A stretch of DNA of 64,000 nt from Schmidtea polychroa. Taxonomy: Eukaryota. A program made the translations under genes and the position numbers. Positions 20,245-49,189 of the stretch are shown in pieces. The stretch is from positions 39,494,001 to 39,558,000 of the forward strand of contig CM097885.1 of NCBI GenBank assembly GCA_044892525.1, given 5' to 3'. How positions within the stretch are numbered: position 1 is the first letter of the stretch; the number at the start of each line of letters is the position of its first letter. The notes beneath the pieces are model-generated. The model saw nothing but the letters and a program-made list of their open reading frames with translations, had not been told where the DNA came from and did not search any database.

Positions 20245-20737
20245 CGTCTTCAGTTTTCAATTTCTCCAAGGCTTCGTATTTGATTTCCGGTTTGTTGTGT
20301 ACATCAAATCCCAGTACGAATGGACAATTTGGGAATCGTTTGCGATGTTCTTCCTTTGGGTGTTCTCCTTTTTTCCATTCTGCTAATTTCCCTTTACAGA
20401 ATCGACACGTTACTTGATCGGGTATCTCTGGTTTTCCGGAGAAGAAAAATCCGTTGAATGCCAGCGCTCGGCTCTGTTCCTTGGTGAAAATGGCCTGGTG
20501 TTCAAATGACAGGTATCTCTGGTTCTCACATCTGAACTGCTCATTGCTCCCCTGCCTCAAATCTCCCTGCACTAAGCTATAACCATTTCCCACAATTCTT
20601 CGATAGTACGTGAAACCACTGGGTTTTGTTCTGCTGACTTCCGAACTTCCTACTTTTTCTCCGGATGATGTATCGTCCTCTCCTTCTCTCATTGTGATCG
20701 TTTTCTTTCGGATATTCGGTCTCGCTTGATTAATCAT
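20245..20737 (-). CDS. BIR-domain (IAP-like) protein, C-terminally truncated at the array junction
   Basis: FRCENQRYLSF...LAFNGFFFSG...DQVTCRFCKGKLAEWKKGEHPKEEHRKRFPNCPFV fits the BIR consensus (R..SF, LA..GF, CxxC...W...H....H......C). Below 20245 the ORF runs on into array sequence. Confidence 0.9.
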
Positions 20738-20872
20738 CTATAATAAATTTCATCATTTCTTTTTGCATTTTTCTTTTTCTAATTTTTATGGTTTTGGTGA
20801 AGGGTTTATACAATAGCTTTATAATTACTTTACATCGTTTTTACAAAATATTTACAGTTTCCCTCTATCCGT

Positions 20873-22234: not shown

Positions 22235-22386
22235 CAACTCATAGTTAATCTTTTGTTCCTCCGCTTCTCTCCGGTTCTCTTCCGCTTTGTTTTGTATTCT
22301 ACAATGATAACTTTTTAATCTTGGGATTCTACTTGGTTATAACTCTATTTATTTACAAGATTATTTACAATTTACTCCTCTCTCTC

Positions 22387-22990: not shown

Positions 22991-24480
22991 TTATACCAGT
23001 GTCGCCATGGGGCCGGAATGCAACGTGCGCATTCCCCCATATCTTTCGTCCGTTAGTCGGTATATATCGACTTCGTGTGACCATTCGTTAGGTGTGGGTA
23101 TTCTTGGTAGTTCCGACATCCACAATCCACTGGATCCGGGGTCCTCTACCACCTCGTATTCTTCTAGATTCAGATTCTCGGTTGGAATACCGTATTCAAA
23201 TTTTTCTACTTTGGGCCATTTTCTCCGGTTTCTCGGTTTTTGTTTACATTTTTTGGTGGTTCTTATCCATTGAATCATTGCTAACGCTATTATCGTACTT
23301 ACTATCGCGCTAGTTATCCATATCATCTTTGTGATTATCGTTGTTCCATTATTTGTCTTTTCTGTCGTTAATACTGTACTGCCTGTAGTATTCGTTTCTG
23401 GTGTCCTGATTTTCTTGAATGCTTGATGTAATCGTTCCTTCTCCTTCTCTGTTAGGTCACTATGATTTTCCCGTTTCTCTCCCCCTTCTCGATCTCGGGG
23501 TATCCACGGTATGTTTAATAATTGGGGTTTTTGTCGAGTTATTGGTTGACATACGCTGGTTCCTCTTCCTTTCTTAAGGATACATACTTGGTATCGTTCT
23601 TTCCGTTTTCCTGTCTCCATTTTAACGTCTGCACCTTGTCTATCGGTGTTGTTGTACAGTCGATTATTCCCGTCTTATCCATTACACATATCCTTATGAT
23701 TGGTTCTCCTTCTTGGTTTTTGACTGTAATTACCTCTTCACCTTTCTTGTTGAGGTTAATAGTTATCTGCACTTCCCGTCTTTCGTCTTTAATTACTTCG
23801 TTAATCCATGTTGTTGTTGTTATTAATTCGGTTTGATTTTGCTCTGTTGTTGTTTTTGTACTAACTGATTTGTTTGGCTTCTTGGTTGTTATCCCCATCA
23901 ATGGACCTTGTTTCATTGCCATACTCTTTGGTTTGTCTTTTCTTGGTGCAGTTCTTGTTCCTTTACATACTACTATCCCTTGTGTTCCTGCGCATACCAC
24001 AGTAGGGGTATTTGGTTTGACCTCTCCCCAGAAGAATTTGTGATCCTGTGTCATATCAGTTACTATGCATATATCTCTGTCTTCTCTGATGCATACATGT
24101 GTAATTGATCAACTCCCTTTATCCTATATTTCGATACCTTCTTCCAGAATGTTAAGTTGAAAATGTACTCCGGTTTCATTGGCTCTTTCTAGTTCCATTT
24201 CCTCTGTTGTTATGTCCCTACAGATGTCATAATCTCCACATAACCTGGGATCTCTTTTTTGGCTGCTAAAAATCTTTCCCTTTGTTATCGATCTGAAATC
24301 ACAACTTACTCCTGTTCCTTCCATTAGTTGAGCACATATTCCGACGGCGTTTCCGTCGTAATCGCTGACTTTTATCACGAATACTTCGCCTTCTTGGAAA
24401 GCTTCTCTTACGATTCTCGTATGTTTTGTTTCCGTTAAACAGAAAGATGTTAATATTATGAATATTCTTTGTAGTAGGAT
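22991..24480 (-). pseudogene. Putative type-I membrane glycoprotein (signal peptide, four Cys-pair modules, Thr-rich stalk, TM, basic tail), broken by two stops and one frameshift
   Basis: Hydrophobic ILLQRIFIILTSFCLT near 24480-24432. Modules ICAQLMEGTGVSC, VCIREDRDIC, ICVMDKTGIIDC and VCILKKGRGTSVC. TM MIWITSAIVSTIIALAMIQWI (23263-23326) followed by RTTKKCKQKPRNRRK. ORFs 24124-27783 and 23539-24054 share a frame (TAG 24124-26, TGA 24109-11); 22991-23620 is in the -1 frame. Confidence 0.6.
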
Positions 24481-27400
24481 TGGCTGGATTTGATTTCGAA
24501 GCACTATGCTATGTAGTGGGGACTTTCGCTTTTTGTTTTCTGTTTTGTCGAATCCTTGATCTTCACCGCGACATTGGTCATCTTCGTCTTCTTCCAACTC
24601 CTCATCATCATCCGTTGTTTCTCCGCCCTCCGGATTCTGTTCTCTGTCGTTTTCCTCTGGGTTGTTATCGTTATCCCGCATCCTTTCGTCGTCGTCGTCA
24701 TCGTCATTCCTCTCACCCGGGGTTTTCCCAAAAATGTCGTCCTCGACATTTGTCGCTTTGATCATCTCTTTGTATTTTTTAATTATCTCTTTTTTATCGT
24801 TGTGGATACTTTCTCGTTCTTCTTTGGTTCCTTGATATTTCCGTTGTTTCCGGTGCCATTCCCACACTAGTATTTCTAGTTGCTTTGTCATCGAATGTGC
24901 TTTTGTGCTTTTCCACCAATTACCTGTCAATTCTGCTCTATTTCTTTGTAATATTGCTTTAATGGTTTTTGGCATTGGTGGTCTTGAGTATATGGCGCTT
25001 CTTAGTACGATATATTCGTTGTTCTGGAATTGATTTATATCAATTACTTCCGCTTTGAATTCGTTTTGTTTCCATTTGATTAACATTGCTGCGGTTCTGT
25101 CTAAGTTTCCTCTGATGGCTTCCAGAATTGGTTCAATGCTCTGTCCCAACACCTCGGCTTCTTCGGTTGTTGCGTTTCCCATGATAAAGCTTAGTATGCT
25201 AGGTCTTTTTGACCTGACGGCGTAGCGCAAGATGGTTCGTTGTTTGTTATCTTTTTCTTTCAAAGTAGATCCCGTTCTCAATAATTCTCTGAGTACTTCT
25301 CTTGACGCGCCTTTTGCTATGGCTTTCATCAGTGGAGTTTTCCCTTTACTATTTTTAACGTTTGTCGATTGTTTGCAGTTTTCCATTATTCGTATAATCT
25401 CTAATGCTCGTTTTTCCTGTCCTGCTTTGACTGCATGATGGATTGGCCAGTTATTACTCAAATCACTTGTGAGGAACATGATTGGTAATCTCCGGATTAG
25501 TTCATATATTTGGACTGGTACTTGTAATCCCTCAGCATACCTTCGTCCTTTTGCATATCTTTCTGCTACTATCATTAGTTTGCCTAATACTTGGTATTTG
25601 TTGGTTATATCAGCCCATTCTGGTACAATTTCTCGTGCTATTTTTACTGTCATATTCCATGTCGCTTGACTCCTTGCCATTGCGTCAGCTTCGCATTCTG
25701 CTCCGGTTCCGTTATTGGCGCTGCTGCTTGTTTCTCCCCTCAACATGAATATCCGTCTTGTCTGTGATCTAGTTAATCTACCGCTTACTTCTGGTTCTGT
25801 TGTGGCATTTGTTTGTGATCTCGTGATTATCTTCCTTGTTTCTTGGTCTTTAGTGGCAGTTTTAGCTACTGCTTTACATCGACATGTATTCACGTATATG
25901 GGTCTAATTAGTGGATTGTTAACCAACTTTACTCGAGCGTTGTTCTCGTTTACATAGATGATTTCATATGGTCCTCTGCCATTAATTTGTAATTTCTTTG
26001 CTGTTCCTGGGATTAACTCGGGTGTTTCTATAATAACCCAATCTCCGACTTTAAATTGATGGTTTTGCACGTTCTTCTTTTTATCATGTAATTCTTTATA
26101 ACTTTCCTGGTTGAATCGGATGTTCATTCCTGCGGTTTTCCATATTTCTTGCATTCTCTCTTTGAACTTTGTCACATAATCATCTATCTCCATATATTGT
26201 GAGATGGGCGGTTGGTACATGAGATCCATCGGCATGTTGCATTCCCTTCCGTACATGAGTTTAAACGGACTCATTTTCGTTGCTGAGTGTATTGACATTC
26301 GGTAAGCCATTAGACACAACTTAATATATTCATCCCAATCCTTTTGATGTTTACTTACATAATTTGACATCATGTCTATTAGTATGCCGTTAAATCTTTC
26401 TCTCTGACCATTCGTTTGCGGGTGGTACGGCGAGGTTCTCAATTTGGCAATTCTGAAATAGTTTGTCACTTCATTTATTATCTCGCTCATGAAATTAGTT
26501 CCTTGGTCCGTTAAGATTTGTTTTGGTGTTCCATATCTGCAGCAGATCTCTTCCACTAATATCCTTGCAACGGTTCGTGCTTTTTGGTCCGGCATCGCAA
26601 ATGCTTCAGGGAACTTGGTCAGATAATCAGTTATTACCAATATATACACATTTCCACTGTTAGTCTCTGGTAGTGGTCCAACTACATCCATTGCAATCAT
26701 TGTCATTGGTTCTGGCGGTATCGGCATTGGTTTCAAGGGCGGTTTTAATTTGCTGCCTGTTGTTTTCCTAGTTGCGCATATCAAACAGTTCTTTATCCAT
26801 TCCTTCACGTCATCGCTCATATTTGGCCAGTAATATTTCTGTTTAAGCCTGGCTTCTGTTTTCTTGGCTGACATATGTCCGCCCAATTTACCGTCATGGT
26901 ATTGAATCATTATTTCTTTTCGTCTACTTTCTGGTAAGCACATCAATCGTTTGTCGCCATCCATTACCAATAGCCATCCTTTCTCAATCGTATATCTGTG
27001 ACGATTTTTCTCCATGTGTTCTTTTAATCGATCATCGTTGTTGAATATTTTCATATCGTTTTTATCCAGGAACTCGATTATTAGTTTCAATTCGCTGTCT
27101 TCCTTTTGTTCGTTCTTTAGATTGGTAAAATCGATATCTTCTGCGATTATCATGCATATTCGCCTGACGTCATGATCCATGAGTTCTTCGAACACAAATC
27201 TCGACAAGCAATCCGCATTTGCGTTTGCTTTTCCTGACTTGAATTTAATGTATGGTGAATATTCTTGTAATTGCATTGCCCATCTCATTAATCGGCTGGA
27301 TGCTTCTTTGTGTTGGCCCAACCACACTAGAGGTTGATGGTCCGTAGTAATAATTATCTCGTGTCCCCATAATAAATATTTGAAATGTTTTATCGCCTGA

Positions 27401-27783
27401 ATTATTGCTAAGGCTTCTCTTTCTGTGACTGAATAATTCTTTTCGTGCTTTTTGAACGTCTTGCTATAATATCCGATGACTCTTTTTCGTTTCTCCTCAT
27501 CCCATTGTCCTAGCACAGCTCCTGATGCATATTCACTTGCATCGGTTGCTAATAGAAAAGGCTTTTTGAAATCTGGGTGTATTAAAATGGGTGAGGCTAT
27601 TAATTTATCTCTTAATGATTCGAATGCCATTTGCTGCTCTCTTTCCCACAGAAATGGAGTGTCTTTTTTCGTTAGTTCCTGAATTGGTTTTGCTATAGTT
27701 GCATAATTTTTGATGAACTTGCGGTAGTATCCGCACAATCCCAGAAATTCCTGCACTTGAGTCAGGGTCTTTGGATCGGACAA
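24124..27783 (-). CDS. Pol C-terminal part: RT connection - RNaseH - integrase - ankyrin repeats - acidic region (downstream copy)
   Basis: QEFLGLCGYYRKFI; LATDASEYASGAVLGQ; H..KLGGH...WIKNCLICA; IAMDVVGPLP; ILTDQGTNF; SPYHPQTNGQRERFN; GRGPYEII. Ankyrin repeats WPIHHAVKAG, KGKTPLMKAIAKG and KQRTILRYAVRSK. Confidence 0.95.
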   Translation of the reverse strand: MSDPKTLTQVQEFLGLCGYYRKFIKNYATIAKPIQELTKKDTPFLWEREQQMAFESLRDKLIASPILIHPDFKKPFLLATDASEYASGAVLGQWDEEKRKRVIGYYSKTFKKHEKNYSVTEREALAIIQAIKHFKYLLWGHEIIITTDHQPLVWLGQHKEASSRLMRWAMQLQEYSPYIKFKSGKANANADCLSRFVFEELMDHDVRRICMIIAEDIDFTNLKNEQKEDSELKLIIEFLDKNDMKIFNNDDRLKEHMEKNRHRYTIEKGWLLVMDGDKRLMCLPESRRKEIMIQYHDGKLGGHMSAKKTEARLKQKYYWPNMSDDVKEWIKNCLICATRKTTGSKLKPPLKPMPIPPEPMTMIAMDVVGPLPETNSGNVYILVITDYLTKFPEAFAMPDQKARTVARILVEEICCRYGTPKQILTDQGTNFMSEIINEVTNYFRIAKLRTSPYHPQTNGQRERFNGILIDMMSNYVSKHQKDWDEYIKLCLMAYRMSIHSATKMSPFKLMYGRECNMPMDLMYQPPISQYMEIDDYVTKFKERMQEIWKTAGMNIRFNQESYKELHDKKKNVQNHQFKVGDWVIIETPELIPGTAKKLQINGRGPYEIIYVNENNARVKLVNNPLIRPIYVNTCRCKAVAKTATKDQETRKIITRSQTNATTEPEVSGRLTRSQTRRIFMLRGETSSSANNGTGAECEADAMARSQATWNMTVKIAREIVPEWADITNKYQVLGKLMIVAERYAKGRRYAEGLQVPVQIYELIRRLPIMFLTSDLSNNWPIHHAVKAGQEKRALEIIRIMENCKQSTNVKNSKGKTPLMKAIAKGASREVLRELLRTGSTLKEKDNKQRTILRYAVRSKRPSILSFIMGNATTEEAEVLGQSIEPILEAIRGNLDRTAAMLIKWKQNEFKAEVIDINQFQNNEYIVLRSAIYSRPPMPKTIKAILQRNRAELTGNWWKSTKAHSMTKQLEILVWEWHRKQRKYQGTKEERESIHNDKKEIIKKYKEMIKATNVEDDIFGKTPGERNDDDDDDERMRDNDNNPEENDREQNPEGGETTDDDEELEEDEDDQCRGEDQGFDKTENKKRKSPLHSIVLRNQIQPILLQRIFIILTSFCLTETKHTRIVREAFQEGEVFVIKVSDYDGNAVGICAQLMEGTGVSCDFRSITKGKIFSSQKRDPRLCGDYDICRDITTEEMELERANETGVHFQLNILEEGIEI

Positions 27784-28763
27784 TTTTTTATCTTTTCAAC
27801 ATTTCTCGGGTCTGGTTCCTTTCCCTTTGCCGACACAATATGTCCTAAAAACGTGACTCTCTCTTTTGCCCAATCGCATTTTGACGGCTTCAATTTCAGC
27901 TTCCATTGTTTCAGTCTCACAAATACGTTCCTGATGTCGATTAAGTGTTGCTCGAAGGTACCTGAATATATCAACAGATCATCAATATACACAATACATT
28001 GTTTAATTCCGTGTGTCACAAAGTTCATACATCTTTTAAACGAAGCAGGTGCATTTGTTAATCCGAATGGCATCTTTTTAAACTGATATAAATCTTTTCC
28101 GATGGTAAAGGCTGTCTTTTCTCTATCTTCCTCTTTAACTTTAATTTGCCAGTATCCACTCTTTAGATCTAACGATGTAAAGTATGCTGCTCCATGCAAC
28201 ATCTGTAACATTTCGTTTATGTCTGGCAGTGGATATGTATCCCTTTTCGTTACTGCATTCAACCTCCGATAATCAATACAAAATCTCTGTGTGCCGTCTT
28301 TCTTTTTGACCATTACTACTGGGAATTGCCATGGTGAACAGCTAGGTTCTATTACTCCGGCATCTAACATCTTTTGTACTTCTTCCTCTGCTACCGTTTT
28401 TTGTGCTTCGGCTAATCGATATGGTCTCAAAGTTATGGGTGTCTCATCTGTTAATGGTATGATGTGTTGAGTTACATCGCTAGTACCCAAATCCAAATCT
28501 GAAGCCGCAAAAATATCTTTAAACTCAATCAGTAGTTGTCTGAGTTGTTCCTTTTCGTCTTCATTTAGGAGTTCGCTATCGATGGTCCATAATTCTTTTT
28601 CATCTGCTCCCTCGCTTTTTATCTCCGGCAGCTCAATGTTCATCATTGGTGTGAGTTTTCCAAGTCTCTCGTTTTCGTAGATTACTTTATCTTCCTCATC
28701 AAAATTGGTGATGTTGATGGGTATCTCGTTATCCTCATTTATACTGACAATTTCTCTTGCCAA
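27762..28763 (-). CDS. Reverse transcriptase (downstream copy)
   Basis: LRPYRLA, IEPSCSPWQFPVVMVKKKDGTQRFCIDYRRLN, FTSLDLKSGYWQI, MPFGLTNAPASF, VYIDDLLIYS. A 1-nt frameshift to RNaseH lies near 27780 (expected CPxPKTLTQ). Confidence 0.97.
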   Translation of the reverse strand: MAREIVSINEDNEIPINITNFDEEDKVIYENERLGKLTPMMNIELPEIKSEGADEKELWTIDSELLNEDEKEQLRQLLIEFKDIFAASDLDLGTSDVTQHIIPLTDETPITLRPYRLAEAQKTVAEEEVQKMLDAGVIEPSCSPWQFPVVMVKKKDGTQRFCIDYRRLNAVTKRDTYPLPDINEMLQMLHGAAYFTSLDLKSGYWQIKVKEEDREKTAFTIGKDLYQFKKMPFGLTNAPASFKRCMNFVTHGIKQCIVYIDDLLIYSGTFEQHLIDIRNVFVRLKQWKLKLKPSKCDWAKERVTFLGHIVSAKGKEPDPRNVEKIKNCPIQRP

Positions 28764-28790
28764 TGGCAGCTCCCTTCTCTTCTCGAATTT

Positions 28791-30209
28791 TTAACTTGGT
28801 TCAAATATCATATCTCCTTTGGCTTCGTTATCGACCTTGACATAACATATTGTCTGGGTACGTGCTGGTATTATCATTTTTTCGGAGCATCTCACTTCTG
28901 TTCTCATTGTGCATATCTGTCCAGTTTTATATTTTAATTTCATGGAACTCAAATCAATCACAATTTCTTTCAATAACTCCGGCATTACATCTGTTCCAAT
29001 TATACATGATACACTTAATTGTCTAATGACTGCGAGGTACGTCGTAACTTTAACTCCTTTATATTCGATCGTTGAACATACTCTTCCTACCACCGCTATG
29101 GATTGTTTGCTGCATGTTATTACATCCATGGTTGTCTCCTCAATGAATGGCCATAGTCTACCTGGGAGCATATTCATATTTATTGCTGAGATATTTGCTC
29201 CGGTATCGATCATTGCATCCATCTCTATTCCGTTTACTTCAACCGTGATGGTTAAGGATGGTCCGGCTGGTGTGTGTAATACCGCAATCGTTCGTGTCTC
29301 AACTTCTTGTTCTACACTTTTAGTCTGTTTGATCATCGTTGGATCCATTGCTGCCCAATTTGGTTCATAAGCTGTTGGATAAATGTTCGGTATGGGTAAT
29401 CTTCCGGTTCCCATTCTTATCCGTTCTCTCATTGTTCCTGGTCGTCGCATTGGTCCATTAGTTGGGGCCTGTAAATATGGTAATCCCCATGGTTTCATTT
29501 TTTCGTTTTCCCAAGTGGCTGTGTTTTTGTTTATCAACATTGCTCCTCCTTGGTTATTATCATCGTCGTCAAAATCATCATTGTCATCACTATCATCGTC
29601 TCGTCTGAGGTTCATCCACTTTTTCCACTTCCCGGTTCTTTTCGCTTTCTCTTGAGTTCTTTCTGCTTCTAATCTCATTATCACTTTGAACTTACGTCCG
29701 ACTTCTTCGTCTGTCCCTTTCATTTGCGTTAATATTTTCAACAATCTTTTTATTCGATAGATATCCTTTGAGTGTCCATGCAACACCATTGTTTTCGCTA
29801 AGAACGGTAAGAATCCAATTGCCAGTTTCCAATTTACTTTTCTCTCGCGCTTATAGATGTCAAAGCATGCTAGCATCTGGGTTAGTATCACTCTGACTAT
29901 TTGTATTATCAGAATAATTCCGAGTATCCCTGCCATCATTTGGCCAAATACTAAAAATCTACCCCACATAGCCTTCATCATGTTTGCTGTTGCCTGTTGA
30001 TAGTGACTTGGTGATAATAATAGCTCGTAGTTCGGGCTCTCCCCATAATTATTTCCTCCAGAAATAGTCACTATATTTGATAAAATCGCTTGTCTTTGTG
30101 CTGGGAATAACATATGGGCTCTTGCTGATTCGAGATCTTTTGGTGTATATAATCCACTCTGTGATACATCTATCGGCTTGAACTCTAATTCTGTTGTTAG
30201 TTCCGTCAA
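28791..30209 (-). CDS. Glycoprotein C-terminus/TM fused in frame to aspartic protease (duplicated copy)
   Basis: Same peptide as aa 300-771 of ORF 33557-35872. AMIDTGANIS at 29199-29207, CIIGTDV. Same frame as RT, separated only by a TAA (FEPS*KFEKRRELPLAREIV). Confidence 0.92.
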   Translation of the reverse strand: MTELTTELEFKPIDVSQSGLYTPKDLESARAHMLFPAQRQAILSNIVTISGGNNYGESPNYELLLSPSHYQQATANMMKAMWGRFLVFGQMMAGILGIILIIQIVRVILTQMLACFDIYKRERKVNWKLAIGFLPFLAKTMVLHGHSKDIYRIKRLLKILTQMKGTDEEVGRKFKVIMRLEAERTQEKAKRTGKWKKWMNLRRDDDSDDNDDFDDDDNNQGGAMLINKNTATWENEKMKPWGLPYLQAPTNGPMRRPGTMRERIRMGTGRLPIPNIYPTAYEPNWAAMDPTMIKQTKSVEQEVETRTIAVLHTPAGPSLTITVEVNGIEMDAMIDTGANISAINMNMLPGRLWPFIEETTMDVITCSKQSIAVVGRVCSTIEYKGVKVTTYLAVIRQLSVSCIIGTDVMPELLKEIVIDLSSMKLKYKTGQICTMRTEVRCSEKMIIPARTQTICYVKVDNEAKGDMIFEPS

Positions 30210-30279
30210 TCCGATGATGGATTGTCCAGTTATTACTCAAATCACTTGTGAGGAACATGATTGGTAATCTCCGGATTAG

Positions 30280-32562
30280 TTAATATATTTGGACTGGTAC
30301 TTGTAATCCCTCAGCATACCTTCGTCCTTTTGCATATCTTTCTGCTACTATCATTAGTTTGCCTAATACTTGGTATTTGTTGGTTATATCAGCCCATTCT
30401 GGTACAATATCTCGTGCTATTTTTACTGTCATATTCCATGTCGCTTGACTCCTTGCCATTGCGTCAGCTTCGCATTCTGCTCCGGTTCCGTTATTGGCGC
30501 TGCTGCTTGTTTCTCCCCTCAACATGAATATCCGTCTTGTCTGTGATCTAGTTAATCTACCGCTTACTTCTGGTTCTGTTGTGGCATTTGTTTGTGATCT
30601 CGTGATTATCTTCCTTGTTTCTTGGTCTTTAGTGGCAGTTTTAGCTACTGCTTTACATCGACATGTATTCACGTATATGGGTCTAATTAGTGGATTGTTA
30701 ACCAACTTTACTCGAGCGTTGTTCTCGTTTACATAGATGATTTCATATGGTCCTCTGCCATTAATTTGTAATTTCTTTGCTGTTCCTGGGATTAACTCGG
30801 GTGTTTCTATAATAACCCAATCTCCGACTTTAAATTGATGGTTTTGCACGTTCTTCTTTTTATCATGTAATTCTTTATAACTTTCCTGGTTGAATCGGAT
30901 GTTCATTCCTGCGGTTTTCCATATTTCTTGCATTCTCTCTTTGAACTTTGTCACATAATCATCTATCTCCATATATTGTGAGATGGGCGGTTGGTACATG
31001 AGATCCATCGGCATGTTGCATTCCCTTCCGTACATGAGTTTAAACGGACTCATTTTCGTTGCTGAGTGTATTGACATTCGGTAAGCCATTAGACACAACT
31101 TAATATATTCATCCCAATCCTTTTGATGTTTACTTACATAATTTGACATCATGTCTATTAGTATGCCGTTAAATCTTTCTCTCTGACCATTCGTTTTTGG
31201 GTGGTACGGCGAGGTTCTCAATTTGGCAATTCTGAAATAGTTTGTCACTTCATTTATTATCTCGCTCATGAAATTAGTTCCTTGGTCCGTTAAGATTTGT
31301 TTTGGTGTTCCATATCTGCAGCAGATCTCTTCCACTAATATCCTTGCAACGGTTCGTGCTTTTTGGTCCGGCATCGCAAATGCTTCAGGGAACTTGGTCA
31401 GATAATCAGTTATTACCAATATATACACATTTCCACTGTTAGTCTCTGGTAGTGGTCCAACTACATCCATTGCAATCATTGTCATTGGTTCTGGCGGTAT
31501 CGGCATTGGTTTCAAGGGCGGTTTTAATTTGCTGCCTGTTGTTTTCCTAGTTGCGCATATCAAACAGTTCTTTATCCATTCCTTCACGTCATCGCTCATA
31601 TTTGGCCAGTAATATTTCTGTTTAAGCCTGGCTTCTGTTTTCTTGGCTGACATATGTCCGCCCAATTTACCGTCATGGTATTGAATCATTATTTCTTTTC
31701 GTCTACTTTCTGGTAAGCACATCAATCGTTTGTCGCCATCCATTACCAATAGCCATCCTTTCTCAATCGTATATCTGTGACGATTTTTCTCCATGTGTTC
31801 TTTTAATCGATCATCGTTGTTGAATATTTTCATATCGTTTTTATCCAGGAACTCGATTATTAGTTTCAATTCGCTGTCTTCCTTTTGTTCGTTCTTTAGA
31901 TTGGTAAAATCGATATCTTCTGCGATTATCATGCATATTCGCCTGACGTCATGATCCATGAGTTCTTCGAACACAAATCTCGACAAGCAATCCGCATTTG
32001 CGTTTGCTTTTCCTGACTTGAATTTAATGTATGGTGAATATTCTTGTAATTGCATTGCCCATCTCATTAATCGGCTGGATGCTTCTTTGTGTTGGCCCAA
32101 CCACACTAGAGGTTGATGGTCCGTAGTAATAATTATCTCGTGTCCCCATAATAAATATTTGAAATGTTTTATCGCCTGAATTATTGCTAAGGCTTCTCTT
32201 TCTGTGACTGAATAATTCTTTTCGTGCTTTTTGAACGTCTTGCTATAATATCCGATGACTCTTTTTCGTTTCTCCTCATCCCATTGTCCTAGCACAGCTC
32301 CTGATGCATATCCACTTGCATCGGTTGCTAATAGAAAAGGCTTTTTGAAATCTGGGTGTATTAAAATGGGTGAGGCTATTAATTTATCTCTTAATGATTC
32401 GAATGCCATTTGCTGCTCTCTTTCCCACAGAAATGGAGTGTCTTTTTTCGTTAGTTCCTGAATTGGTTTTGCTATAGTTGCATAATTTTTGATGAACTTG
32501 CGGTAGTATCCGCACAATCCCAGAAATTCCTGCACTTGAGTCAGGGTCTTTGGATCGGACAA
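30280..32562 (-). pseudogene. RNaseH-integrase, upstream duplicate, with a premature stop before the ankyrin region
   Basis: Near-identical to 24124-27783 but GAA>TAA at QIY*. Substitutions ASGYASG and HPKTNG. Confidence 0.93.
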
Positions 32563-32627
32563 TTCTTTATCTTTTCAACATTTCTCGGGTCTGGTTCCTT
32601 TCCCTTTGCCGACACAATATGTCCTAA

Positions 32628-33542
32628 TTACGTGACTCTCTCTTTTGCCCAATCGCATTTTGACGGCTTCAATTTCAGCTTCCATTGTTTCAGTCTCACA
32701 AATACGTTCCTGATGTCGATTAAGTGTTGCTCGAAGGTACCTGAATATATCAACAGATCATCAATATACACCATACATTGTTTAATTCCGTGTGTCACAA
32801 AGTTCATACATCTTTGAAACGAAGCAGGTGCGTTTGTTAATCCGAATGGCATCTTTTTAAACTGATATAAATCTTTTCCGATGGTAAAGGCTGTCTTTTC
32901 TCTATCTTCCTCTTTAACTTTAATTTGCCAGTATCCACTCTTTAGATCTAACGATGTAAAGTATGCTGCTCCATGCAACATCTGTAACATTTCGTTTATG
33001 TCTGGCAGTGGATATGTATCCCTTTTCGTTACTGCATTCAACCTCCGATAATCAATACAAAATCTCTGTGTGCCGTCTTTCTTTTTGACCATTACTACTG
33101 GGAATTGCCATGGTGAACAGCTAGGTTCTATTACTCCGGCATCTAACATCTTTTGTACTTCTTCCTCTGCTACCGTTTTTTGTGCTTCGGCTAATCGATA
33201 TGGTCTCAAAGTTATGGGTGTCTCATCTGTTAATGGTATGATGTGTTGAGTTACATCGCTAGTACCCAAATCCAAATCTGAAGCCGCAAAAATATCTTTA
33301 AACTCAATCAGTAGTTGTCTGAGTTGTTCCTTTTCGTCTTCATTTAGGAGTTCGCTATCGATGGTCCATAATTCTTTTTCGTCTGCACCCTCGCTTTTTA
33401 TCTCCGGCAGCTCAATGTTCATCATTGGTGTGAGTTTTCCAAGTCTCTCGTTTTCGTAGATTACTTTATCTTCCTCATCAAAATTGGTGATGTTGATGGG
33501 TATCTCGTTATCCTCATTTATACTGACAATTTCTCTTGCCAA
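32628..33542 (-). pseudogene. Reverse transcriptase, upstream duplicate
   Basis: Same RT with TTT>TAA at ERVT* and a 13-bp deletion (GAAGGGAGCTGCC) between PR and RT. Confidence 0.93.
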
Positions 33543-33556
33543 TTCTTCTCGAATTT

Positions 33557-35872
33557 TTAACTTGGTTCAAATATCATATCTCCTTTGGCTTCGTTATCGA
33601 CCTTGACATAACATATTGTCTGGGTACGTGCTGGTATTATCATTTTTTCGGAGCATCTCACTTCTGTTCTCATTGTGCATATCTGTCCAGTTTTATATTT
33701 TAATTTCATGGAACTCAAATCAATCACAATTTCTTTCAATAACTCCGGCATTACATCTGTTCCAATTATACATGATACACTTAATTGTCTAATGACTGCG
33801 AGGTACGTCGTAACTTTAACTCCTTTATATTCGATCGTTGAACATACTCTTCCTACCACCGCTATGGATTGTTTGCTGCATGTTATTACATCCATGGTTG
33901 TCTCCTCAATGAATGGCCATAGTCTACCTGGGAGCATATTCATATTTATTGCTGAGATATTTGCTCCGGTATCGATCATTGCATCCATCTCTATTCCGTT
34001 TACTTCAACCGTGATGGTTAAGGATGGTCCGGCTGGTGTGTGTAATACCGCAATCGTTCGTGTCTCAACTTCTTGTTCTACACTTTTAGTCTGTTTGATC
34101 ATCGTTGGATCCATTGCTGCCCAATTTGGTTCATAAGCTGTTGGATAAATGTTCGGTATGGGTAATCTTCCGGTTCCCATTCTTATCCGTTCTCTCATTG
34201 TTCCTGGTCGTCGCATTGGTCCATTAGTTGGGGCCTGTAAATATGGTAATCCCCATGGTTTCATTTTTTCGTTTTCCCAAGTGGCTGTGTTTTTGTTTAT
34301 CAACATTGCTCCTCCTTGGTTATTATCATCGTCGTCAAAATCATCATTGTCATCACTATCATCGTCTCGTCTGAGGTTCATCCACTTTTTCCACTTCCCG
34401 GTTCTTTTCGCTTTCTCTTGAGTTCTTTCTGCTTCTAATCTCATTATCACTTTGAACTTACGTCCGACTTCTTCGTCTGTCCCTTTCATTTGCGTTAATA
34501 TTTTCAACAATCTTTTTATTCGATAGATATCCTTTGAGTGTCCATGCAACACCATTGTTTTCGCTAAGAACGGTAAGAATCCAATTGCCAGTTTCCAATT
34601 TACTTTTCTCTCGCGCTTATAGATGTCAAAGCATGCTAGCATCTGGGTTAGTATCACTCTGACTATTTGTATTATCAGAATAATTCCGAGTATCCCTGCC
34701 ATCATTTGGCCAAATACTAAAAATCTACCCCACATAGCCTTCATCATGTTTGCTGTTGCCTGTTGATAGTGACTTGGTGATAATAATAGCTCGTAGTTCG
34801 GGCTCTCCCCATAATTATTTCCTCCAGAAATAGTCACTATATTTGATAAAATCGCTTGTCTTTGTGCTGGGAATAACATATGGGCTCTTGCTGATTCGAG
34901 ATCTTTTGGTGTATATAATCCACTCTGTGATACATCTATCGGCTTGAACTCTAATTCTGTTGTTAGTTCCGTCAATCCGAATTTTTTGGGTGTTGGTGCG
35001 ATTGTTTTACTTGGGAATTGAACCCATTGTCCATCCTCTTTTTCGTACATTGGTCCATATGCATTACTGCAATTAAACAGATTTGGTTGAAACCCTACCG
35101 GGTTCATTATCCTAGTGACTGCTTGCACAAATCTGGGTTTTCCTCCATGAATAATTTCGAATTCGTTTGCACACTTATCGCTTGGTATTATAGGGTTTCC
35201 TGGCAATCTTGCAATTATCTTTTTGCATTGATAGGTGTACATTACCTCGCCCACGATTCGTCCGAAATATCCTTCTTGCAGTGGTAGTAACGGGATTGCG
35301 TTATCTGGATTTGTAATTGCCATTGCTAATTTTGTTCTCAATATTTCTTTGTTGAGCAGGCAATCGTTTCTTAACAGATCGTGATAGACCTTTTCCGTAG
35401 ATGTTAATCCCCTGTGATATAAGAAATCCATCTTATTATTAGCATATAAATATAATTTGACATCTTTTTCGCTTAGTCTTCCAACTGCATTTGCTAGGGT
35501 TCTCCGCGACAAGTAGATCCCTTTATAATTGGTGCTGATCACCATCTCATCGCATTTACTCACCATTTTGTTCTTTATGAATCTCATTCCTATTCCATCG
35601 TCTTTGGAGATTATCGCTGTGGGTGTTACTTCCGATTCCAATTTCGATGTTAATACGTCTTCTCTGAATCCTTTCCTTGCTCTCAACTCTTCCATCGCTC
35701 GTTTTTCTGCTTCTCCTTTTGGTTCACTGTACACTTTCCCTTGGATTTCTTCGAATATTGCTGTTTTGAGTAACATTAGTCGACATACTTTCTGATCCGC
35801 ATGGTATACCAGAGTTGACATTCCGGTTGAACATGATCGATCTGATGCGAGACAGCTTGGGTATTTCTTCAT
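33557..35872 (-). CDS. Chuvirus-like envelope glycoprotein (C-terminal two thirds with TM) fused in frame to aspartic protease
   Basis: NKMDFLYHRG...VYHDLLRNDCLLNKEILRTKLAMA..NPD...EGYFGRIVGEVMYTYQC...KCANEF...SGLYTPKDLESARAHMLFPAQRQAILSNIV matches recalled chuviral G motifs. TM FLVFGQMMAGILGIILIIQIV. Then an acidic D-run and AMIDTGANIS at 33965-33973. Confidence 0.85.
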   Translation of the reverse strand: MKKYPSCLASDRSCSTGMSTLVYHADQKVCRLMLLKTAIFEEIQGKVYSEPKGEAEKRAMEELRARKGFREDVLTSKLESEVTPTAIISKDDGIGMRFIKNKMVSKCDEMVISTNYKGIYLSRRTLANAVGRLSEKDVKLYLYANNKMDFLYHRGLTSTEKVYHDLLRNDCLLNKEILRTKLAMAITNPDNAIPLLPLQEGYFGRIVGEVMYTYQCKKIIARLPGNPIIPSDKCANEFEIIHGGKPRFVQAVTRIMNPVGFQPNLFNCSNAYGPMYEKEDGQWVQFPSKTIAPTPKKFGLTELTTELEFKPIDVSQSGLYTPKDLESARAHMLFPAQRQAILSNIVTISGGNNYGESPNYELLLSPSHYQQATANMMKAMWGRFLVFGQMMAGILGIILIIQIVRVILTQMLACFDIYKRERKVNWKLAIGFLPFLAKTMVLHGHSKDIYRIKRLLKILTQMKGTDEEVGRKFKVIMRLEAERTQEKAKRTGKWKKWMNLRRDDDSDDNDDFDDDDNNQGGAMLINKNTATWENEKMKPWGLPYLQAPTNGPMRRPGTMRERIRMGTGRLPIPNIYPTAYEPNWAAMDPTMIKQTKSVEQEVETRTIAVLHTPAGPSLTITVEVNGIEMDAMIDTGANISAINMNMLPGRLWPFIEETTMDVITCSKQSIAVVGRVCSTIEYKGVKVTTYLAVIRQLSVSCIIGTDVMPELLKEIVIDLSSMKLKYKTGQICTMRTEVRCSEKMIIPARTQTICYVKVDNEAKGDMIFEPS

Positions 35873-35893
35873 TGCTTGCGTGTCAGGGTCGAA

Positions 35894-37480
35894 CTAACCT
35901 TGATACCTTTCCAATTTGGCTTCATAACTTTCTATTACGACCACTCCACTAACTAGTTGTCCGTTCAGGGTGTATGTTCCTGTCTCACATGTTCCGTCTC
36001 CTTTAGTGATTCTGCCTGCTGTATACCCTCGAGTCGTTTTTATTTTTCCTGGTTCTGCAGCAATTTCAATCCCTTGCCTTAAGTGGATTCTCCCCGATCG
36101 GAATCCTTCCTCGCATTCCTCTCTTGATAGTAATATTACCGTCGATTCCAATCCCGGTTCTATGATTGTTGAGTGGGAGGATGAACCGCAGTGATGTGCA
36201 AATATCTTTCTGGTTACCGTACATTCTTGGACCATGGTTTTGATGAAATCTGCTTCTTGATATACGTTGTACGAGACTGATGCCATGACTGTTTGTAATT
36301 TTCTTGGGTTTGCCGCTTTACAGTCTTCCGTATCCTTTAATGAATATTTCTCATGGATTTTTATGTTGTCGCAGTCGTATACTGCAAATGACTCTGTTCC
36401 CTTGATACACATCATCCATATCAATATCGTGGTTATTATGGCATTCATTCCTTTTCGGCTTGCTCTTGGGTCGTTCATATTGATTGTCCCTTCGAATTCA
36501 GTTAGCAAATCGCGTAACTTTGCTTGCATCATTTCCGTTTGATCTTTCTTCCCAGTTGATTTGATGAAGCTTCTCCATCCCCCTTGTTCGAGTATATATG
36601 GTTCTTTTGATCGTTTGATTATTTCTGTTACTGTGAATTCATAACTAGTTGCGTTATATTTTGGCATTAGTTTTTTATATTGACCAATGACGTTATACAC
36701 CAAATATGCTAATCCCACTAAATATCGATTTTGGTCCTCTGATCTGCTTAATAGATGTTCCACAATTAATCTGAGTTCCATCGGATCCTTTAACGTTAAT
36801 CGAATTTTATTATCCATGATTTTCATTATTATCGGTTTCAATACCGCCCATAATTGTTTGGCTTCGGTTGGAATATTATCCTTCCTCATTATTCTTTTCA
36901 CATCTGGATTTGCTAACGCTAACATGTTAGCTAATAAGTCGTTTATCCATCGTGTCCCTTGTTCCCGGACGTTTGTTTTCACTTTGACTTGTTTTACTAA
37001 TGCACTTAGTTTATCCATTTTAGTTTTTACCTGTTCCATTTGCGCCTGAATTTTGGATTTTGGTTCCACTTCTGCTTTATCTGTTTTTGGTCTTCCTCTT
37101 GTTCGTCGATCCATAGCTGTTCCGGTTTCTTTCCGTTTTGGCGGATTGTAAGTTGTATCTTTTGACGTGGTCGCTCCTGGATCTACTCTCCAGTTGCTCC
37201 ATTCATCGGTTGTGGTTACATCTTTATCGACACCTCTTTCCACATTATCTAAATCCGTCTCGGCTTCTGTCGTTTCCACTGGTTGTCTTTGCGCGCATAC
37301 AAATCCATCTAGATCATCAGTTGTCGGTTCACCTTCGTCGATAAATAGATCTCCTGATTGCGATGCTCTCATAATCTCGCCAGCTTCTACTATCTCTTGT
37401 AATTCATCCAGTATTTCGTCTTCTCCCGTTGTTTTGATCGTTACTTCACTAACCGCATTTGGGACTTCTGGTGTGTCCAA
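35894..37480 (-). CDS. Acidic/Thr region + Bcl-2-like domain + internal signal peptide + N-terminal third of the chuvirus-like glycoprotein
   Basis: YILEQGGWRSFI is BH2-like. MNAIITTILIWMMCIKGTES|FAVYDC is a signal peptide followed by the YDC start typical of chuviral G; then C..HHCGSSSH, LSREECEE, GRITKGDGTCE. In frame with 33557-35872 across one TAG (QG*FDPDTQAMKKY). Confidence 0.8.
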   Translation of the reverse strand: MDTPEVPNAVSEVTIKTTGEDEILDELQEIVEAGEIMRASQSGDLFIDEGEPTTDDLDGFVCAQRQPVETTEAETDLDNVERGVDKDVTTTDEWSNWRVDPGATTSKDTTYNPPKRKETGTAMDRRTRGRPKTDKAEVEPKSKIQAQMEQVKTKMDKLSALVKQVKVKTNVREQGTRWINDLLANMLALANPDVKRIMRKDNIPTEAKQLWAVLKPIIMKIMDNKIRLTLKDPMELRLIVEHLLSRSEDQNRYLVGLAYLVYNVIGQYKKLMPKYNATSYEFTVTEIIKRSKEPYILEQGGWRSFIKSTGKKDQTEMMQAKLRDLLTEFEGTINMNDPRASRKGMNAIITTILIWMMCIKGTESFAVYDCDNIKIHEKYSLKDTEDCKAANPRKLQTVMASVSYNVYQEADFIKTMVQECTVTRKIFAHHCGSSSHSTIIEPGLESTVILLSREECEEGFRSGRIHLRQGIEIAAEPGKIKTTRGYTAGRITKGDGTCETGTYTLNGQLVSGVVVIESYEAKLERYQG

Positions 37481-37534
37481 ACTTCCTGGTTGTTGGTGGA
37501 TGATTTTTGCTTTATCTCTCTTCTCCTTAATTCT

Positions 37535-38164
37535 CTACCTGCAATTTCTCACCGTTAATCTGTTCACAATTTCTCCTTGAAGTGGTGTCACACCAATTTC
37601 AATATCATCGTCTAATGATCGTCCCTCGTGTTGTAAGTGAAACGGAAGTTCATAAGGTATTCTCTTTTTAACTTCCCTGACCTTGGCTGTTGTGTAGAAT
37701 TCCTTTTCCATTGGTTCAAAATCTGGTAAGAATATATTTAGTTGATATTTCTCGGGTGAGTTTTCGGCCCACTCCTGTTGTTTCCATTTCCGGATGATTT
37801 CACCAAATTGCTCTGGGTACCATACGTATACTCGTCGATATTCCTCAATTGCTTTAACGATTTTTCGTAGGTTTTGAATCCTTTTGCATGATTCGGCTAT
37901 CCATTTTGCTAGTTCTACTACCGCTCGTCGACGATTTTTCGCACCGTTTTGTAATATTTCTATCAACTCCTTACACTTTTGTGCTTCCATCAATGTTGCT
38001 GCTTCCTCCTCATCTGCGTCGGCGTCTATTGGTAGATGTCCTGAATCTGGTACTCTTCTCCTCATCATACAGATTCTCGGTTGATTTTTCGGTATGTTCA
38101 ATCGTTGGTTCATTTCTTTTTCCATTTCCACCTCTACTCTGATCTGGATGGCATTGCCTTTCAC
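37535..38164 (-). CDS. Last strand of the MATH domain plus an unknown helical domain (polyprotein segment)
   Basis: Begins VKGNAIQIRVEVE, the expected terminal TRAF/MATH strand. Same frame as 35894-37480, separated by one TAG (NCR*RIKEKR). Confidence 0.7.
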   Translation of the reverse strand: MKGNAIQIRVEVEMEKEMNQRLNIPKNQPRICMMRRRVPDSGHLPIDADADEEEAATLMEAQKCKELIEILQNGAKNRRRAVVELAKWIAESCKRIQNLRKIVKAIEEYRRVYVWYPEQFGEIIRKWKQQEWAENSPEKYQLNIFLPDFEPMEKEFYTTAKVREVKKRIPYELPFHLQHEGRSLDDDIEIGVTPLQGEIVNRLTVRNCR

Positions 38165-39795
38165 AAATATCGACTGTTCGTTCTCGATGTAATTTGACGT
38201 ATCAATTTAGACGTCCCAGAAGCGATATTTTCTAATGTCGTCGGTCGTTGATAGCAGGCGCTCCTTGGATCTGGTTTCAATGTTTCTTTATGTACGTTAA
38301 GGCTATATTTCAGTGGTTCGATCGCTATCGTTACTTTTCTGCTAAACGGCCATGGTACCTTGTCGTCATAACTTCCTTTGCAGATGATGAAGAATGCCGA
38401 CACATAACTTCTTTTTCCTACTCCGTCTCCGTTCGGGTATATTCGCAATTTCATCTTGTACTCACCTAATCCTGAGTAAAACGGTGGACTTACTAATCGT
38501 GTGATTTTTTCTTCCTTTCCTGATTTTATCTTTTCCATCCAATTCTCAATTTTCCACGTGAATGGTGCTAACCTTACCGGTTCTCGTATCTCCTCATCTT
38601 CTCCTAATTGTAATTCATTTTGGAATTCTTGTGGTAATATATCCTGGTAAGTATCGATTGGTTTCTCTCTTACCCATACTGCTGCGATCTCTTCGGGTAT
38701 ATTATCTATCCAATTTGGTTCCAACTTTTGCTGCTCCCAATCCCATCGAGCTTCACTTTCGATCCACACCTTTTTCCATGGTATCAGTTTGCAATCTTCG
38801 TCATTGAAGGCTGCTAGTTTTAGTTTATCATCCTTTAGCCAATGGTTATAAATATCTATTATTCGATCCATCTTTGCTCTCATTCCCCATTGGAATCTCT
38901 TGATTTGTTGATCAGTTTTGGTGACGTTTTTGTGTCCGCCAGATGGTTCATCCATCGCGATTATATTAATGACGGCTCCATCTTCCCAGATTCCTAGTTC
39001 GTAAATTACAGTTCGGTCTCCTCTTTCTAGCATGTGTCGGTTGTACATTATTATCACATCTTCGATCATTTCATCCTCACTATTTTCTCGAGCTTTTTGG
39101 ATAATCTCCTGATCTATGATTTGTACTAACTCGTCAACTTGGCAATCGGGATTGACTTCTATTATCTGTTTCTCTTCATTTGGCAACTTCACCTTTATTT
39201 TTATCGTTTCTTGTTCGCATTTGGTTCTCTCGTATTCTCCGTATTTTGATATTAATTCTGTTGCTCGTTTATCTTCAAATCTCATAATTTCCGTGTCTCG
39301 TACGTCTTTGACAAATTGTTTCATTAGTTGTGGCCATCTTTCTCTTAGTCTATTAATATATTTCCTTGCCTGATCGATAGCTTGTTTGACCAAGGTTATT
39401 TGGTTTTCTTTCATTATTTTTCGTTCGATCTTTTCCAATTCCGGTTCCACTTCATTGTTAAACACTTGTTGGATTTTCTTGAACATTTCTGTCACTGATT
39501 CGTCATCTCTGGTTTTCTCTAAGGTTAAGGTGTTAGTTTCGTTTGGCCATATCATCGCATCCACCAAATGTATGCCCGTTTTAACTTTGTAACCATCGAC
39601 ATATAATTGTTTATTTTTATGGCTCGTTCCCATCTTTTCCTGTACCCAGTTGTACAGTTCATCAGTATTTGTTCCTTTTAATTCAATGGCCCGTATCTGA
39701 ATCTCGGGGTGTTGAATACTTACTTGGTATTGATCTGGGTCTGCGTCCTTTAGTTTCTCTTTATATTTTGTTGCTAGATCTTTCCATGCTGCCAC
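38161..39795 (-). CDS. Two ubiquitin-like domains plus a TRAF-type MATH domain (polyprotein segment)
   Basis: Ubl1 (~39729-39517) QEKMG..KQLYVDG..GIHLVD aligns with ubiquitin QDKEG..QRLIFAG..GRTLSD. Ubl2 (~39204-38956) IKIKVKLPNEEKQIIEVNPDCQVDEL. MATH: FTWKIENW...SPPFYSG..EYKMKLRIYPNGDG...VSAFFIICKGSYDDKVPWPFSRKVTI. Confidence 0.85.
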   Translation of the reverse strand: MAAWKDLATKYKEKLKDADPDQYQVSIQHPEIQIRAIELKGTNTDELYNWVQEKMGTSHKNKQLYVDGYKVKTGIHLVDAMIWPNETNTLTLEKTRDDESVTEMFKKIQQVFNNEVEPELEKIERKIMKENQITLVKQAIDQARKYINRLRERWPQLMKQFVKDVRDTEIMRFEDKRATELISKYGEYERTKCEQETIKIKVKLPNEEKQIIEVNPDCQVDELVQIIDQEIIQKARENSEDEMIEDVIIMYNRHMLERGDRTVIYELGIWEDGAVINIIAMDEPSGGHKNVTKTDQQIKRFQWGMRAKMDRIIDIYNHWLKDDKLKLAAFNDEDCKLIPWKKVWIESEARWDWEQQKLEPNWIDNIPEEIAAVWVREKPIDTYQDILPQEFQNELQLGEDEEIREPVRLAPFTWKIENWMEKIKSGKEEKITRLVSPPFYSGLGEYKMKLRIYPNGDGVGKRSYVSAFFIICKGSYDDKVPWPFSRKVTIAIEPLKYSLNVHKETLKPDPRSACYQRPTTLENIASGTSKLIRQITSRTNSRYL

Positions 39796-40241
39796 TCATT
39801 TTTCCTGAACCAATGTTCTTTCACTTTTTCTTTTATTTGTTCCTCAGTTAATGTAGGGTTTTTGTTTTTGATTCTATCTTCGATTTTTTGTAGTAGTACC
39901 CTCTGAATTTGATTTTTTGTAACTATCTCATTGCTTTTTGGTTCGTCTTTGCTCTCATCCCTTTTTTGTCTCCTTTCTTTTTCCTCTTTGGTAAATTCTT
40001 TAATCAATTGTATTTTCTCTTCACTGCTCAATTCTGTCTGTGGATCAATCTCATTTTCTTTTGTCATTTTTATCTCCTCGTTTATTATCGGATCACTCCC
40101 TTCGTTGTTAACACACTGCTCCGCAGTGTGCGATTCCTCTTTATTTGTTAATCTCATCATATTTATTCTTCCGGGATTCGCTTCCGTTGTTTCCATCTTT
40201 CTTGAATTTCTCTGGCTTCCTCGTTTTATAATCTTTGCCAA
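39774..40241 (-). CDS. Charged coiled-coil segment between gag and the Ubl region
   Basis: 155-aa E/K-rich ORF overlapping both neighbours in the -1 frame. Contains GRINMMRL. Confidence 0.55.
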   Translation of the reverse strand: MAKIIKRGSQRNSRKMETTEANPGRINMMRLTNKEESHTAEQCVNNEGSDPIINEEIKMTKENEIDPQTELSSEEKIQLIKEFTKEEKERRQKRDESKDEPKSNEIVTKNQIQRVLLQKIEDRIKNKNPTLTEEQIKEKVKEHWFRKNEWQHGKI

Positions 40242-41431
40242 TCGATTCGTTGTTGGTCTTGTTGTTGCTTACTCGGTTGTTTCCGGATTTCCTCGGTGCT
40301 CTGCATCATATTGTTTCGTTGCTGTTGATTATTAACCGGTATTTGTTGGATCATATCTTTTAATTGTTCGATTTCCTGCATGAGGTTAATTTGTGTGTTC
40401 TGACTTGGATTGTTTGATCCTGGTTGATTTGGTTTGGTTCTCATCGTGCATTCTCTTGCCATGTGTCCAGGTTGATTACAATTGTAGCAGGTTCTGGTTC
40501 CTCCTCTGCCCATAGACATCATGGGTCCTCTGCAGACATTCTCCGTGTGGCCTCTTCTCCCACATTTTTGACACATCCTTGCTTTATAACATTCATTGCT
40601 CCAATGCCCTGATCGTTGGCATATGTTGCACGTCCGATTGTTAATGTCGTTGTTCCTGAAATTATTAGTAAAATTTTGAATATTACCTCCATTGTCTTGG
40701 TTTCTTGTTTGTGGAGTTTTGAACAACTGTTTCGATCCTGGGATGAATTGATTCATTACTGGATTCGCATTATTGACTTGATTGTTTGTGGTTGTTGATG
40801 TTGTTGCTGGAGCTGCTGGAGCTGCTGTCATTGCTGCTACTTGTATTGGTGTTAGGTAAGTTTCACATTTGTTAGCTATTTTTAGTGCTTCTTCCAGCGT
40901 CTCTGGTGCTCGACATCCCAAGGTTGCTCGTATATCCTCTCGTTTCATGCCATCTACGAATACGGCTATTATTCTGTCTTCCGGAACTGGTTGATTTGAA
41001 TCGAAGGCTTCTCTTGCTAGTCGTCTCAATTCGCATGCGTACAGTGCGTTGGATTCGTTATATTTCTGCTTTCGATGCAGAAAGTCTAACATTTTTCGAT
41101 TTCCTTCTTTCTCGATACCGAATGTTTTTATTAAAAACTCCTTGATCTCTTTCCACGTTCTCAACTTTGTTGCATCGCATTTTGCCTCTAAATATACATC
41201 TTGGGCGCTTCCCTTTAGATATAGGGGTATTCGTTCTCGTACGACTATGTCTGGCCAGTGACATATCGTAATGTATACTTCAAATTCTTTTATAAACGTT
41301 TCTAGCTGGTTTATATTTCCATCGAATGGCTCTCCTCGAAATTACTCTCTGAATTCTCCAATGTTGACGTGCACATTACTTGTTTCCGGTGGATCCGTTA
41401 CCCCTGTTCCATTTGGAGTCCCGTCTGCCAT
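40226..41431 (-). pseudogene. Gag of the giant element (capsid + three CCHC knuckles), one in-frame TAA at 41342-41344
   Basis: MADGTP...GEFRE*FRGEPFDGNINQLETFIKEF...RIPLYLKGSAQDVY...RTWKEIKEFL is continuous in frame. Knuckles CNICQRSGHWSNEC, CQKCGRRGHTENVC and CYNCNQPGHMAREC. The frame stays open further upstream toward 41842. Confidence 0.9.
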
Positions 41432-48880: not shown

Positions 48881-49189
48881 AAGAAGAGAGTAATGATATT
48901 ACATTAGAGGCCAAGGACCAAATGTGAAGCAGTTCAGAGTATACTGCGTAATTCAATACACTCTGTTAATAATAATAAATCTTTAGATGNNNNNNNNNNN
49001 NNNNNNNNNNNNNNNNNNNNNNNNNNNNNNNNNNNNNNNNNNNNNNNNNNNNNNNNNNNNNNNNNNNNNNNNNNNNNNNNNNNNNNNNNNNNNNNNNNNN
49101 NNNNNNNNNNNNNNNNNNNNNNNNNNNNNNNNNNNNNNNNNNNNNNNNNNNNNNNNNNNNNNNNNNNNNNNNNNNNNNNNNNGGCCAAT

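Follow-up and report, generated by a model that had tools for sequence, protein, structure and literature searches.

A Bcl-2-like domain very probably precedes the in-frame envelope region in a broken copy of a giant planarian-type retrotransposon

Analysis of a 64-kb stretch of the Schmidtea polychroa genome (64,000 nucleotides, hereafter the window) revealed a broken copy of a giant planarian-type retrotransposon, which very probably carries the cell-death-regulator (Bcl-2-like) domain known to precede env in such elements. Homology of this domain to Bcl-2 proteins is suggested by its sequence and appears very likely to us, based on sub-significant matches taken together with the published position of a BCL2-like motif in Burro elements, immediately ahead of env. 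It is probable that we are dealing with a diverged, host-derived Bcl-2-fold domain in a Burro-type polyprotein, in which the own signal of the envelope protein is used internally and the domain has a pro-survival or immune-dampening role. Giant gypsy polyproteins in which a BCL2-like motif immediately precedes an in-frame env have been in the literature since 2018-2019, so our finding mainly re-detects a known feature. The copy in the window may be a new member of the Burro family, and the only new idea is that the env signal peptide might also tether the Bcl-2-like domain to the membrane.

A GC island (39% GC versus 26.7% GC in the surrounding DNA) extends over ~20.1-41.8 kb of the window. 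As read from a Pfam search of 22 frames, the minus strand encodes a giant Ty3/gypsy element with the order gag (three CCHC), ubiquitin-like, MATH, Bcl-2-like domain, mononegavirus-type env, PR, RT, RH, INT and ankyrin, followed by TRAF-like and BIR accessory ORFs. Its coding span amounts to 21.7 kb, including an internal duplication. The features are:

40226..41341 (-), gag, Ty3 capsid-like domain and three CCHC knuckles (Pfam; CCHC motifs)
38161..39795 (-), ubiquitin-like segment(s) and MATH/TRAF domain (MATH E 1.7e-22, Pfam)
37535..38206 (-), frame upstream of the Bcl-2-like domain, same frame with a stop between (37535-37537)
36557..36964 (-), putative helical domain resembling Bcl-2, covering residues 191-326 in the 546-aa frame (boundaries by inference)
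36698..36736 (-), segment at the BH1 position and start of the alpha5-like hydrophobic core helix (NWGR not conserved)
36563..36646 (-), alpha6 to BH2-like segment, ending GGWRSFI (ungapped Mcl-1 match)
36467..36556 (-), polar stretch linking BH2 to the signal segment, with an additional helix predicted (models; composition)
36449..36466 (-), basic n-region (RASRKG) before the signal segment (sequence)
36389..36448 (-), env internal signal sequence: Met, hydrophobic core, putative peptidase site after T-E-S (PF24664 start)
35897..36388 (-), N-terminal part of the env ectodomain, a fusion glycoprotein of Monjiviricetes type (PF24664 E 7.5e-24; stop at 35894-35896)
33557..35893 (-), C-terminal part of env with a TM helix of 21 residues and a cytosolic tail, plus aspartic protease, sharing the frame of the domain (PF24664 E 8.7e-45, RVP E 2.1e-5)
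24124..33566 (-), RT, RNase H and integrase (twice via tandem duplication), then ankyrin repeats (Pfam)
20174..22336 (-), accessory ORFs, TRAF-like (zinc fingers, MATH) and BIR (Pfam)

The Bcl-2-like domain is carried by an open frame of 546 aa (35894-37534, minus strand). Stops at 37535-37537 and 35894-35896 split the frame common to this domain, env and the protease, and frameshifts are present at further places; this genomic copy of the element is decayed. It may also be truncated. Comparison of the two ends of the element gave no paired LTRs, and an assembly gap lies at 42844-43118. This gap falls where the 5' LTR might be expected and is one of four in the window (879 N in total), the others being at 48990-49182, 56445-56587 and 59724-59991. 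A tandem duplication of 4,780 bp (25435-30214 and 30214-34980; 99.4% identical, 14 mismatches and one 13-base gap) repeats the env C-terminus, PR, RT, RNase H and integrase, and is either a recent event or an assembly artefact. Up to three ubiquitin-like segments surround MATH on the minus strand (39735-39514, 39210-38950 and 37753-37547), the outer two recognized by eye only. The middle one (38950-39210), N-terminal of MATH, is weakly supported by OTU1_UBXL (E 0.0054), and no Pfam or relevant PDB match was obtained for the C-terminal 69 residues of the frame at 37535..38206, which look ubiquitin-like by eye. In the accessory ORFs, Pfam detected zf-TRAF (E 8.8e-6), MATH (E 2.2e-26) and BIR (E 1.9e-16). 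The TRAF-like gene (20873-22336, minus strand), broken by a stop, comprises a segment that is RING-like by eye, zf-TRAF and MATH, and is followed by the BIR ORF (20174-20737, minus strand). Identity between the element's two MATH domains amounts to only 33%.

The remainder of the window contains further repeats. Positions 1-19800 are occupied by an array of six nearly identical units of 3.2-3.6 kb, each with an ORF of 292-311 aa containing 57-bp repeats; the ORF of the first copy contains an RRM domain (E 1.5e-5). On the far side of the giant element, at ~45700-48150, there is a seventh unit, which is partial and more diverged. A second gypsy element of ordinary size (51193-55504, plus strand), whose RT is 35% identical to that of the giant element, is flanked by a 61-bp inverted repeat (49217-49277 / 56612-56672), and a separate gag remnant is present at 57240-58253 on the minus strand.

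The BH2-like motif PYILEQGGWRSFI reported in an earlier note on this DNA is indeed present (residues 312-324; 36601-36563, minus strand). As a motif it is recognizable (YILEQGGWRSFI, with Tyr in place of the first Trp), at a level below family significance. For the pattern scan we used the BH2 consensus, loosened to admit Tyr for the first Trp. This pattern has one match across all six frames of the 64-kb window. When the 5,600 residues encoded by the element were shuffled 20,000 times, 0.055% of the shuffles contained the strict form and 0.385% the loose form, figures that somewhat overstate the significance because the pattern was loosened after the motif had been seen. The weak BH1-like motif DQNRYLVGLAYLV is likewise present (residues 267-279; 36736-36698, minus strand); DQNRYLVGL is found at the expected distance, but Trp and Gly of NWGR are missing in either register. 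Depending on the register, the spacing between BH1 and BH2 is 49-51 residues, and it is ~50 residues in Bcl-xL and Mcl-1. Residues 271-286 belong to a predicted alpha5-like helix (16 uncharged residues, mean KD 1.08). In the family order BH4-BH3-BH1-BH2, predicted amphipathic helices are located at the positions expected for BH4 and BH3, the former having a BH4-like look by eye, and no G-D of BH3 is visible in the domain. With the latter and the NWGR Trp and Gly missing, canonical BH3 binding is doubtful. BH1 with NWGR is described as a Bcl-2 family feature in PMC11209288, and viral Bcl-2 members may be devoid of BH motifs according to passages of PMC7022251. Since viral members can lose these motifs, the missing NWGR counts more heavily against canonical BH3 binding than against the fold.

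Sequence searches pointed to the Bcl-2 family at sub-significant levels. The NCBIfam model TIGR00865 (bcl-2) matched one of four queries, for which it was the sole family reported, and subsequently all five domain-bearing queries, with E-values of 0.02-0.13, corresponding to 12-15 bits versus a family cut-off of 283. Control frames produced unrelated matches in 4 of 6 cases (E 0.032-0.64), placing the bcl-2 E-values at noise level, and with the whole 546-aa frame an unrelated family (E 0.031) ranked above bcl-2 (E 0.13). If the published work is taken to fix family and position beforehand, the chance of the match is ~1e-6 per model, as calculated by dividing E by 18,950. The Pfam family PF00452, proposed in the note as a check, matched none of nine domain-bearing queries. 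When a 37-residue BH2 query was searched against the PDB, all 49 sequences at E<=10 belonged to the Bcl-2 family (47 Mcl-1 and 2 Bcl-xL, both heavily over-represented in the PDB), and the alpha6-BH2 segment aligned with Mcl-1 over 26 residues without gaps (best E 0.28). No PDB match was returned for the 206-residue domain query, and the N-terminal 97 residues of the domain, BH1 included, gave no Bcl-2 match in the one query made. All sequence signal for Bcl-2 stems from the alpha6-BH2 part. The sequence searches run found neither homologs of the domain nor Burro sequences, and an atlas search returned low-score neighbours only (0.76-0.78), which are unnamed or gag-like. As regards the designation as viral-type Bcl-2, the carrier of the domain is an LTR retrotransposon, and the proteins that match it best are the cellular Mcl-1 and Bcl-xL rather than viral Bcl-2s.

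The Bcl-2 fold comprises up to eight helices bundled around a central hydrophobic alpha5, as described in PMC7022251. Two AlphaFold models of the domain, predicted from the single sequence, were all-helical, in agreement with the helical region seen earlier, but both are of low confidence (pLDDT 44.2 and 39.7). Foldseek, which had been suggested together with AlphaFold to examine the fold, ranked the Bcl-2 family first for both models (E 0.78): it occupied ranks 1-8 and 29 of the 46 matches listed for model 1, and rank 1 and 15 of the 47 matches listed for model 2. ASFV A179L appeared at ranks 6 and 10 (model 1). No fold match at E<=0.001 was obtained with either model, and TM-scores of these poor models to Bcl-2 proteins were ~0.2-0.3. 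VIA, applied to the 93 chains from Foldseek, placed core/latch forms of Bak, Bcl-xL and Bax at ranks 1-4, in register over ~100 residues. No Bcl-2 chain was among the best 50 listed in wide structural searches with either model, and in BFVD named vBcl-2s were found at ranks 16 and 45 among the best 50 listed, not significant. The HMM, pairwise and 3Di+AA searches are not fully independent, because they have the BH2 residues in common. The Bcl-2-like assignment is thus probably right, given the sub-significant matches and the position known from Burro; the fold itself is likely but not demonstrated by these models.

The envelope identity of the region that follows is confirmed by PF24664 (E 7.5e-24, Pfam), position 1 of which aligns at Met363, where the hydrophobic segment begins. 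This segment (36451-36404, minus strand) has an uncharged run of 16 residues (362-377, mean KD 1.88), and the ectodomain following T-E-S is cysteine-rich. The putative signal-peptidase site after T-E-S was placed according to the -3,-1 rule. The domain had been described as directly upstream of the signal peptide, which is overstated: a linker of 38 polar residues (7 K+R, 6 D+E) intervenes, the hydrophobic core begins 45 residues past the BH2 Trp, and the segment falls outside the range 36560..36960 given for the domain. A second signal-like segment is present past the ankyrin/acidic region (24489-24427, minus strand), with no Bcl-2 domain before it. Next come a beta-rich stretch that contains cysteines and runs over broken frames, and a TM helix of 21 residues (23329-23267, minus strand). 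Together these parts probably represent a second type I membrane protein, for which Pfam gave no convincing family.

Many Bcl-2 family members possess a C-terminal transmembrane anchor. The earlier proposal that the hydrophobic segment shares its origin with a Bcl-2 tail anchor would mean that the own tail anchor of the Bcl-2 gene was recruited as env signal and that the product is a stable, tail-anchored vBcl-2. Consistent with this, the segment would have the same orientation in both roles (N-side cytosolic), no other strongly hydrophobic stretch comes between it and BH2, and the TIGR00865 matches extend beyond BH2 to residue 341. However, only ~21 profile positions are left at this point and the hydrophobic core starts 21-24 residues later, i.e. 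the segment lies ~20 residues beyond the tail of the Bcl-2 profile; the env profile starts precisely at Met363; the uncharged run of 16 residues compares with 21 in both the env TM helix and the second downstream TM helix; and the second signal-like segment has no Bcl-2 domain in front. Together with the signal-peptide anatomy (Met start, uncharged core, T-E-S), these observations suggest that the segment came in with the glycoprotein gene. We therefore regard a recruited tail anchor as improbable, and the segment is most likely the captured glycoprotein's own signal peptide rather than an inherited Bcl-2 tail.

Even less likely is an unrelated helical domain that has a GGW motif by chance, e.g. 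a matrix-like module or structural spacer preceding env. That no family, sequence or fold match reaches significance, that Bcl-2 chains are missing from the best 50 listed in the wide structural searches and that the atlas neighbours score low would fit such a module, but HMM, pairwise and 3Di+AA searches each surface the Bcl-2 family, in part from the same BH2 residues, the BH2 pattern is rare in shuffles, and a BCL2-like motif was independently reported at this place in Burro. More credit, though still well short of the favored reading, is due to an explanation with the same identity and another function: a Bcl-2 fold that does not bind BH3 might, by analogy with some poxviral Bcl-2-fold proteins, serve as a scaffold which dampens TRAF/NF-kB-type innate signalling with the MATH, Ubl-like and ankyrin domains. 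NWGR is not conserved, two MATH domains, a TRAF-like ORF and ankyrins are united in one element, and Bcl-2-fold proteins with non-groove roles in NF-kB signalling are on record (PMC7022251, in part). Against it, the best-kept part is BH2, which matches pro-survival Mcl-1, and BH3 ligands are still bound by viral Bcl-2s without recognizable BH motifs, as stated in a portion of PMC11209288.

According to the favored reading, a strongly diverged, host-derived Bcl-2-fold domain would reside in-frame within the gag-env-pol polyprotein of a Burro-type Ty3/gypsy element. In an active element, synthesis would proceed from gag onward in the cytosol, until the internally used env signal peptide directs the ectodomain of env to the ER lumen; transfer would then be stopped by the TM helix of env, returning PR-RT-IN to the cytosol. 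Following signal-peptidase cleavage, the Bcl-2-like domain would be left on the cytosolic face, ER-tethered at least transiently unless the linker is cut. If the polyprotein is made as one chain, the internal signal would have its N-side in the cytosol, and the domain and possibly the whole Gag-containing precursor would be ER-tethered, barring a cut in the linker. Such de facto use of the env signal peptide as anchor, probably by topology rather than shared ancestry, is plausible, and it predicts an ER rather than a mitochondrial location. The domain would most likely act in a pro-survival or immune-dampening manner beside the BIR and TRAF-like proteins, shielding the cell that replicates the element. 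In flaviviruses (capsid anchor) and hepatitis C virus (core signal), a single hydrophobic segment both holds the cytosolic protein before it at the membrane and acts as signal for the glycoprotein that follows; the likeness is an analogy of topology only, with no homology claimed. In an extended and rather unlikely version, the signal would perform triple duty: besides translocating env, it would hold a functional pro-survival Bcl-2 on the cytosolic ER face and, since gag precedes it in the chain, tether the whole Gag-Ubl-MATH-Bcl-2 precursor to the membrane where env sits, thus taking the place of a matrix protein during budding. If true, this would represent a flavivirus-like anchor/signal strategy in a reverse-transcribing element, with a vBcl-2 that is anchored in the membrane and produced in a one-to-one ratio to capsid and envelope.

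The anchor/signal idea was not found in section 7 of PMC6431247 or in a targeted literature search of limited reach. If true, it would explain the link of capsid and envelope in an element that has env in its polyprotein, and would mean that a transposon linked to the survival of stem cells has a second arm against cell death: the Burro1 RING-BIR region is reported to shield stem cells from caspase-mediated death/apoptosis (Lee 2026, as cited in PMC13465017). The functional work in the literature found, as far as its text was accessible, concerns this RING-BIR region only and not the Bcl-2-like domain or threading and processing of the polyprotein; the accessible parts of PMC8532177 and PMC13238120 contain nothing on the Bcl-2-like domain.

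The closest known system is planarian Burro/GYPSM1, for which section 7 of PMC6431247 lists gag, MATH, Ubl-like, BCL2-like motif, env, ankyrin and BIR, places an env related to mononegavirus fusion proteins in frame 'between BCL2 and PR', credits the BCL2-like motif in Burro-2, -3 and -4 to Grohme 2018 and also cites Jurka 2007. Common to Burro and the window element are a three-CCHC gag, followed by PR-RT-RH-IN in Ty3/gypsy order, MATH, ankyrin and BIR as accessory domains, putative Ubl-like segments, and a BCL2-like motif followed, the stop aside, by an in-frame mononegavirus-like env between gag and pol. The main coding region comprises ~4,300 codons without the duplication as compared to 4,873-5,140 aa in Burro, and host DNA is AT-rich in both cases (26.7% GC in the flanks of the window element; >70% A/T in the S. 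mediterranea genome, PMC11410931, in part). Burro has long paired LTRs and exceeds 30 kb in total; in the window copy, which may be truncated, the coding span is 21.7 kb with the duplication and no paired LTRs were found. In contrast to Burro, this copy is broken by stops and frameshifts, contains the 4.78-kb internal duplication, has its best-supported Ubl-like segment before rather than after MATH, and possesses a TRAF-like accessory ORF before BIR. A dUTPase-like motif (between PR and RT) and a Ubl/SUMO-like motif (between MATH and BCL2) were not detected by Pfam/PDB search, whereas the Burro paper used HHpred. Membership in the Burro family rests on architecture and composition, because no Burro sequence was found for comparison. 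With Mcl-1 and Bcl-xL (PF00452, TIGR00865) the domain shares the ungapped 26-residue alpha6-BH2 match, a hydrophobic central helix, the BH1-BH2 spacing and the all-helical prediction, but it differs by the absence of NWGR and of a clear BH3, by being embedded in a polyprotein and by a longer linker to a shorter hydrophobic segment. Like ASFV A179L and the vBcl-2s of herpesviruses and poxviruses, as portrayed in part of PMC11209288, it appears to be captured and highly diverged with BH motifs partly lost; unlike those dsDNA-virus proteins, which are encoded by stand-alone genes, it constitutes a polyprotein domain of a reverse-transcribing element.
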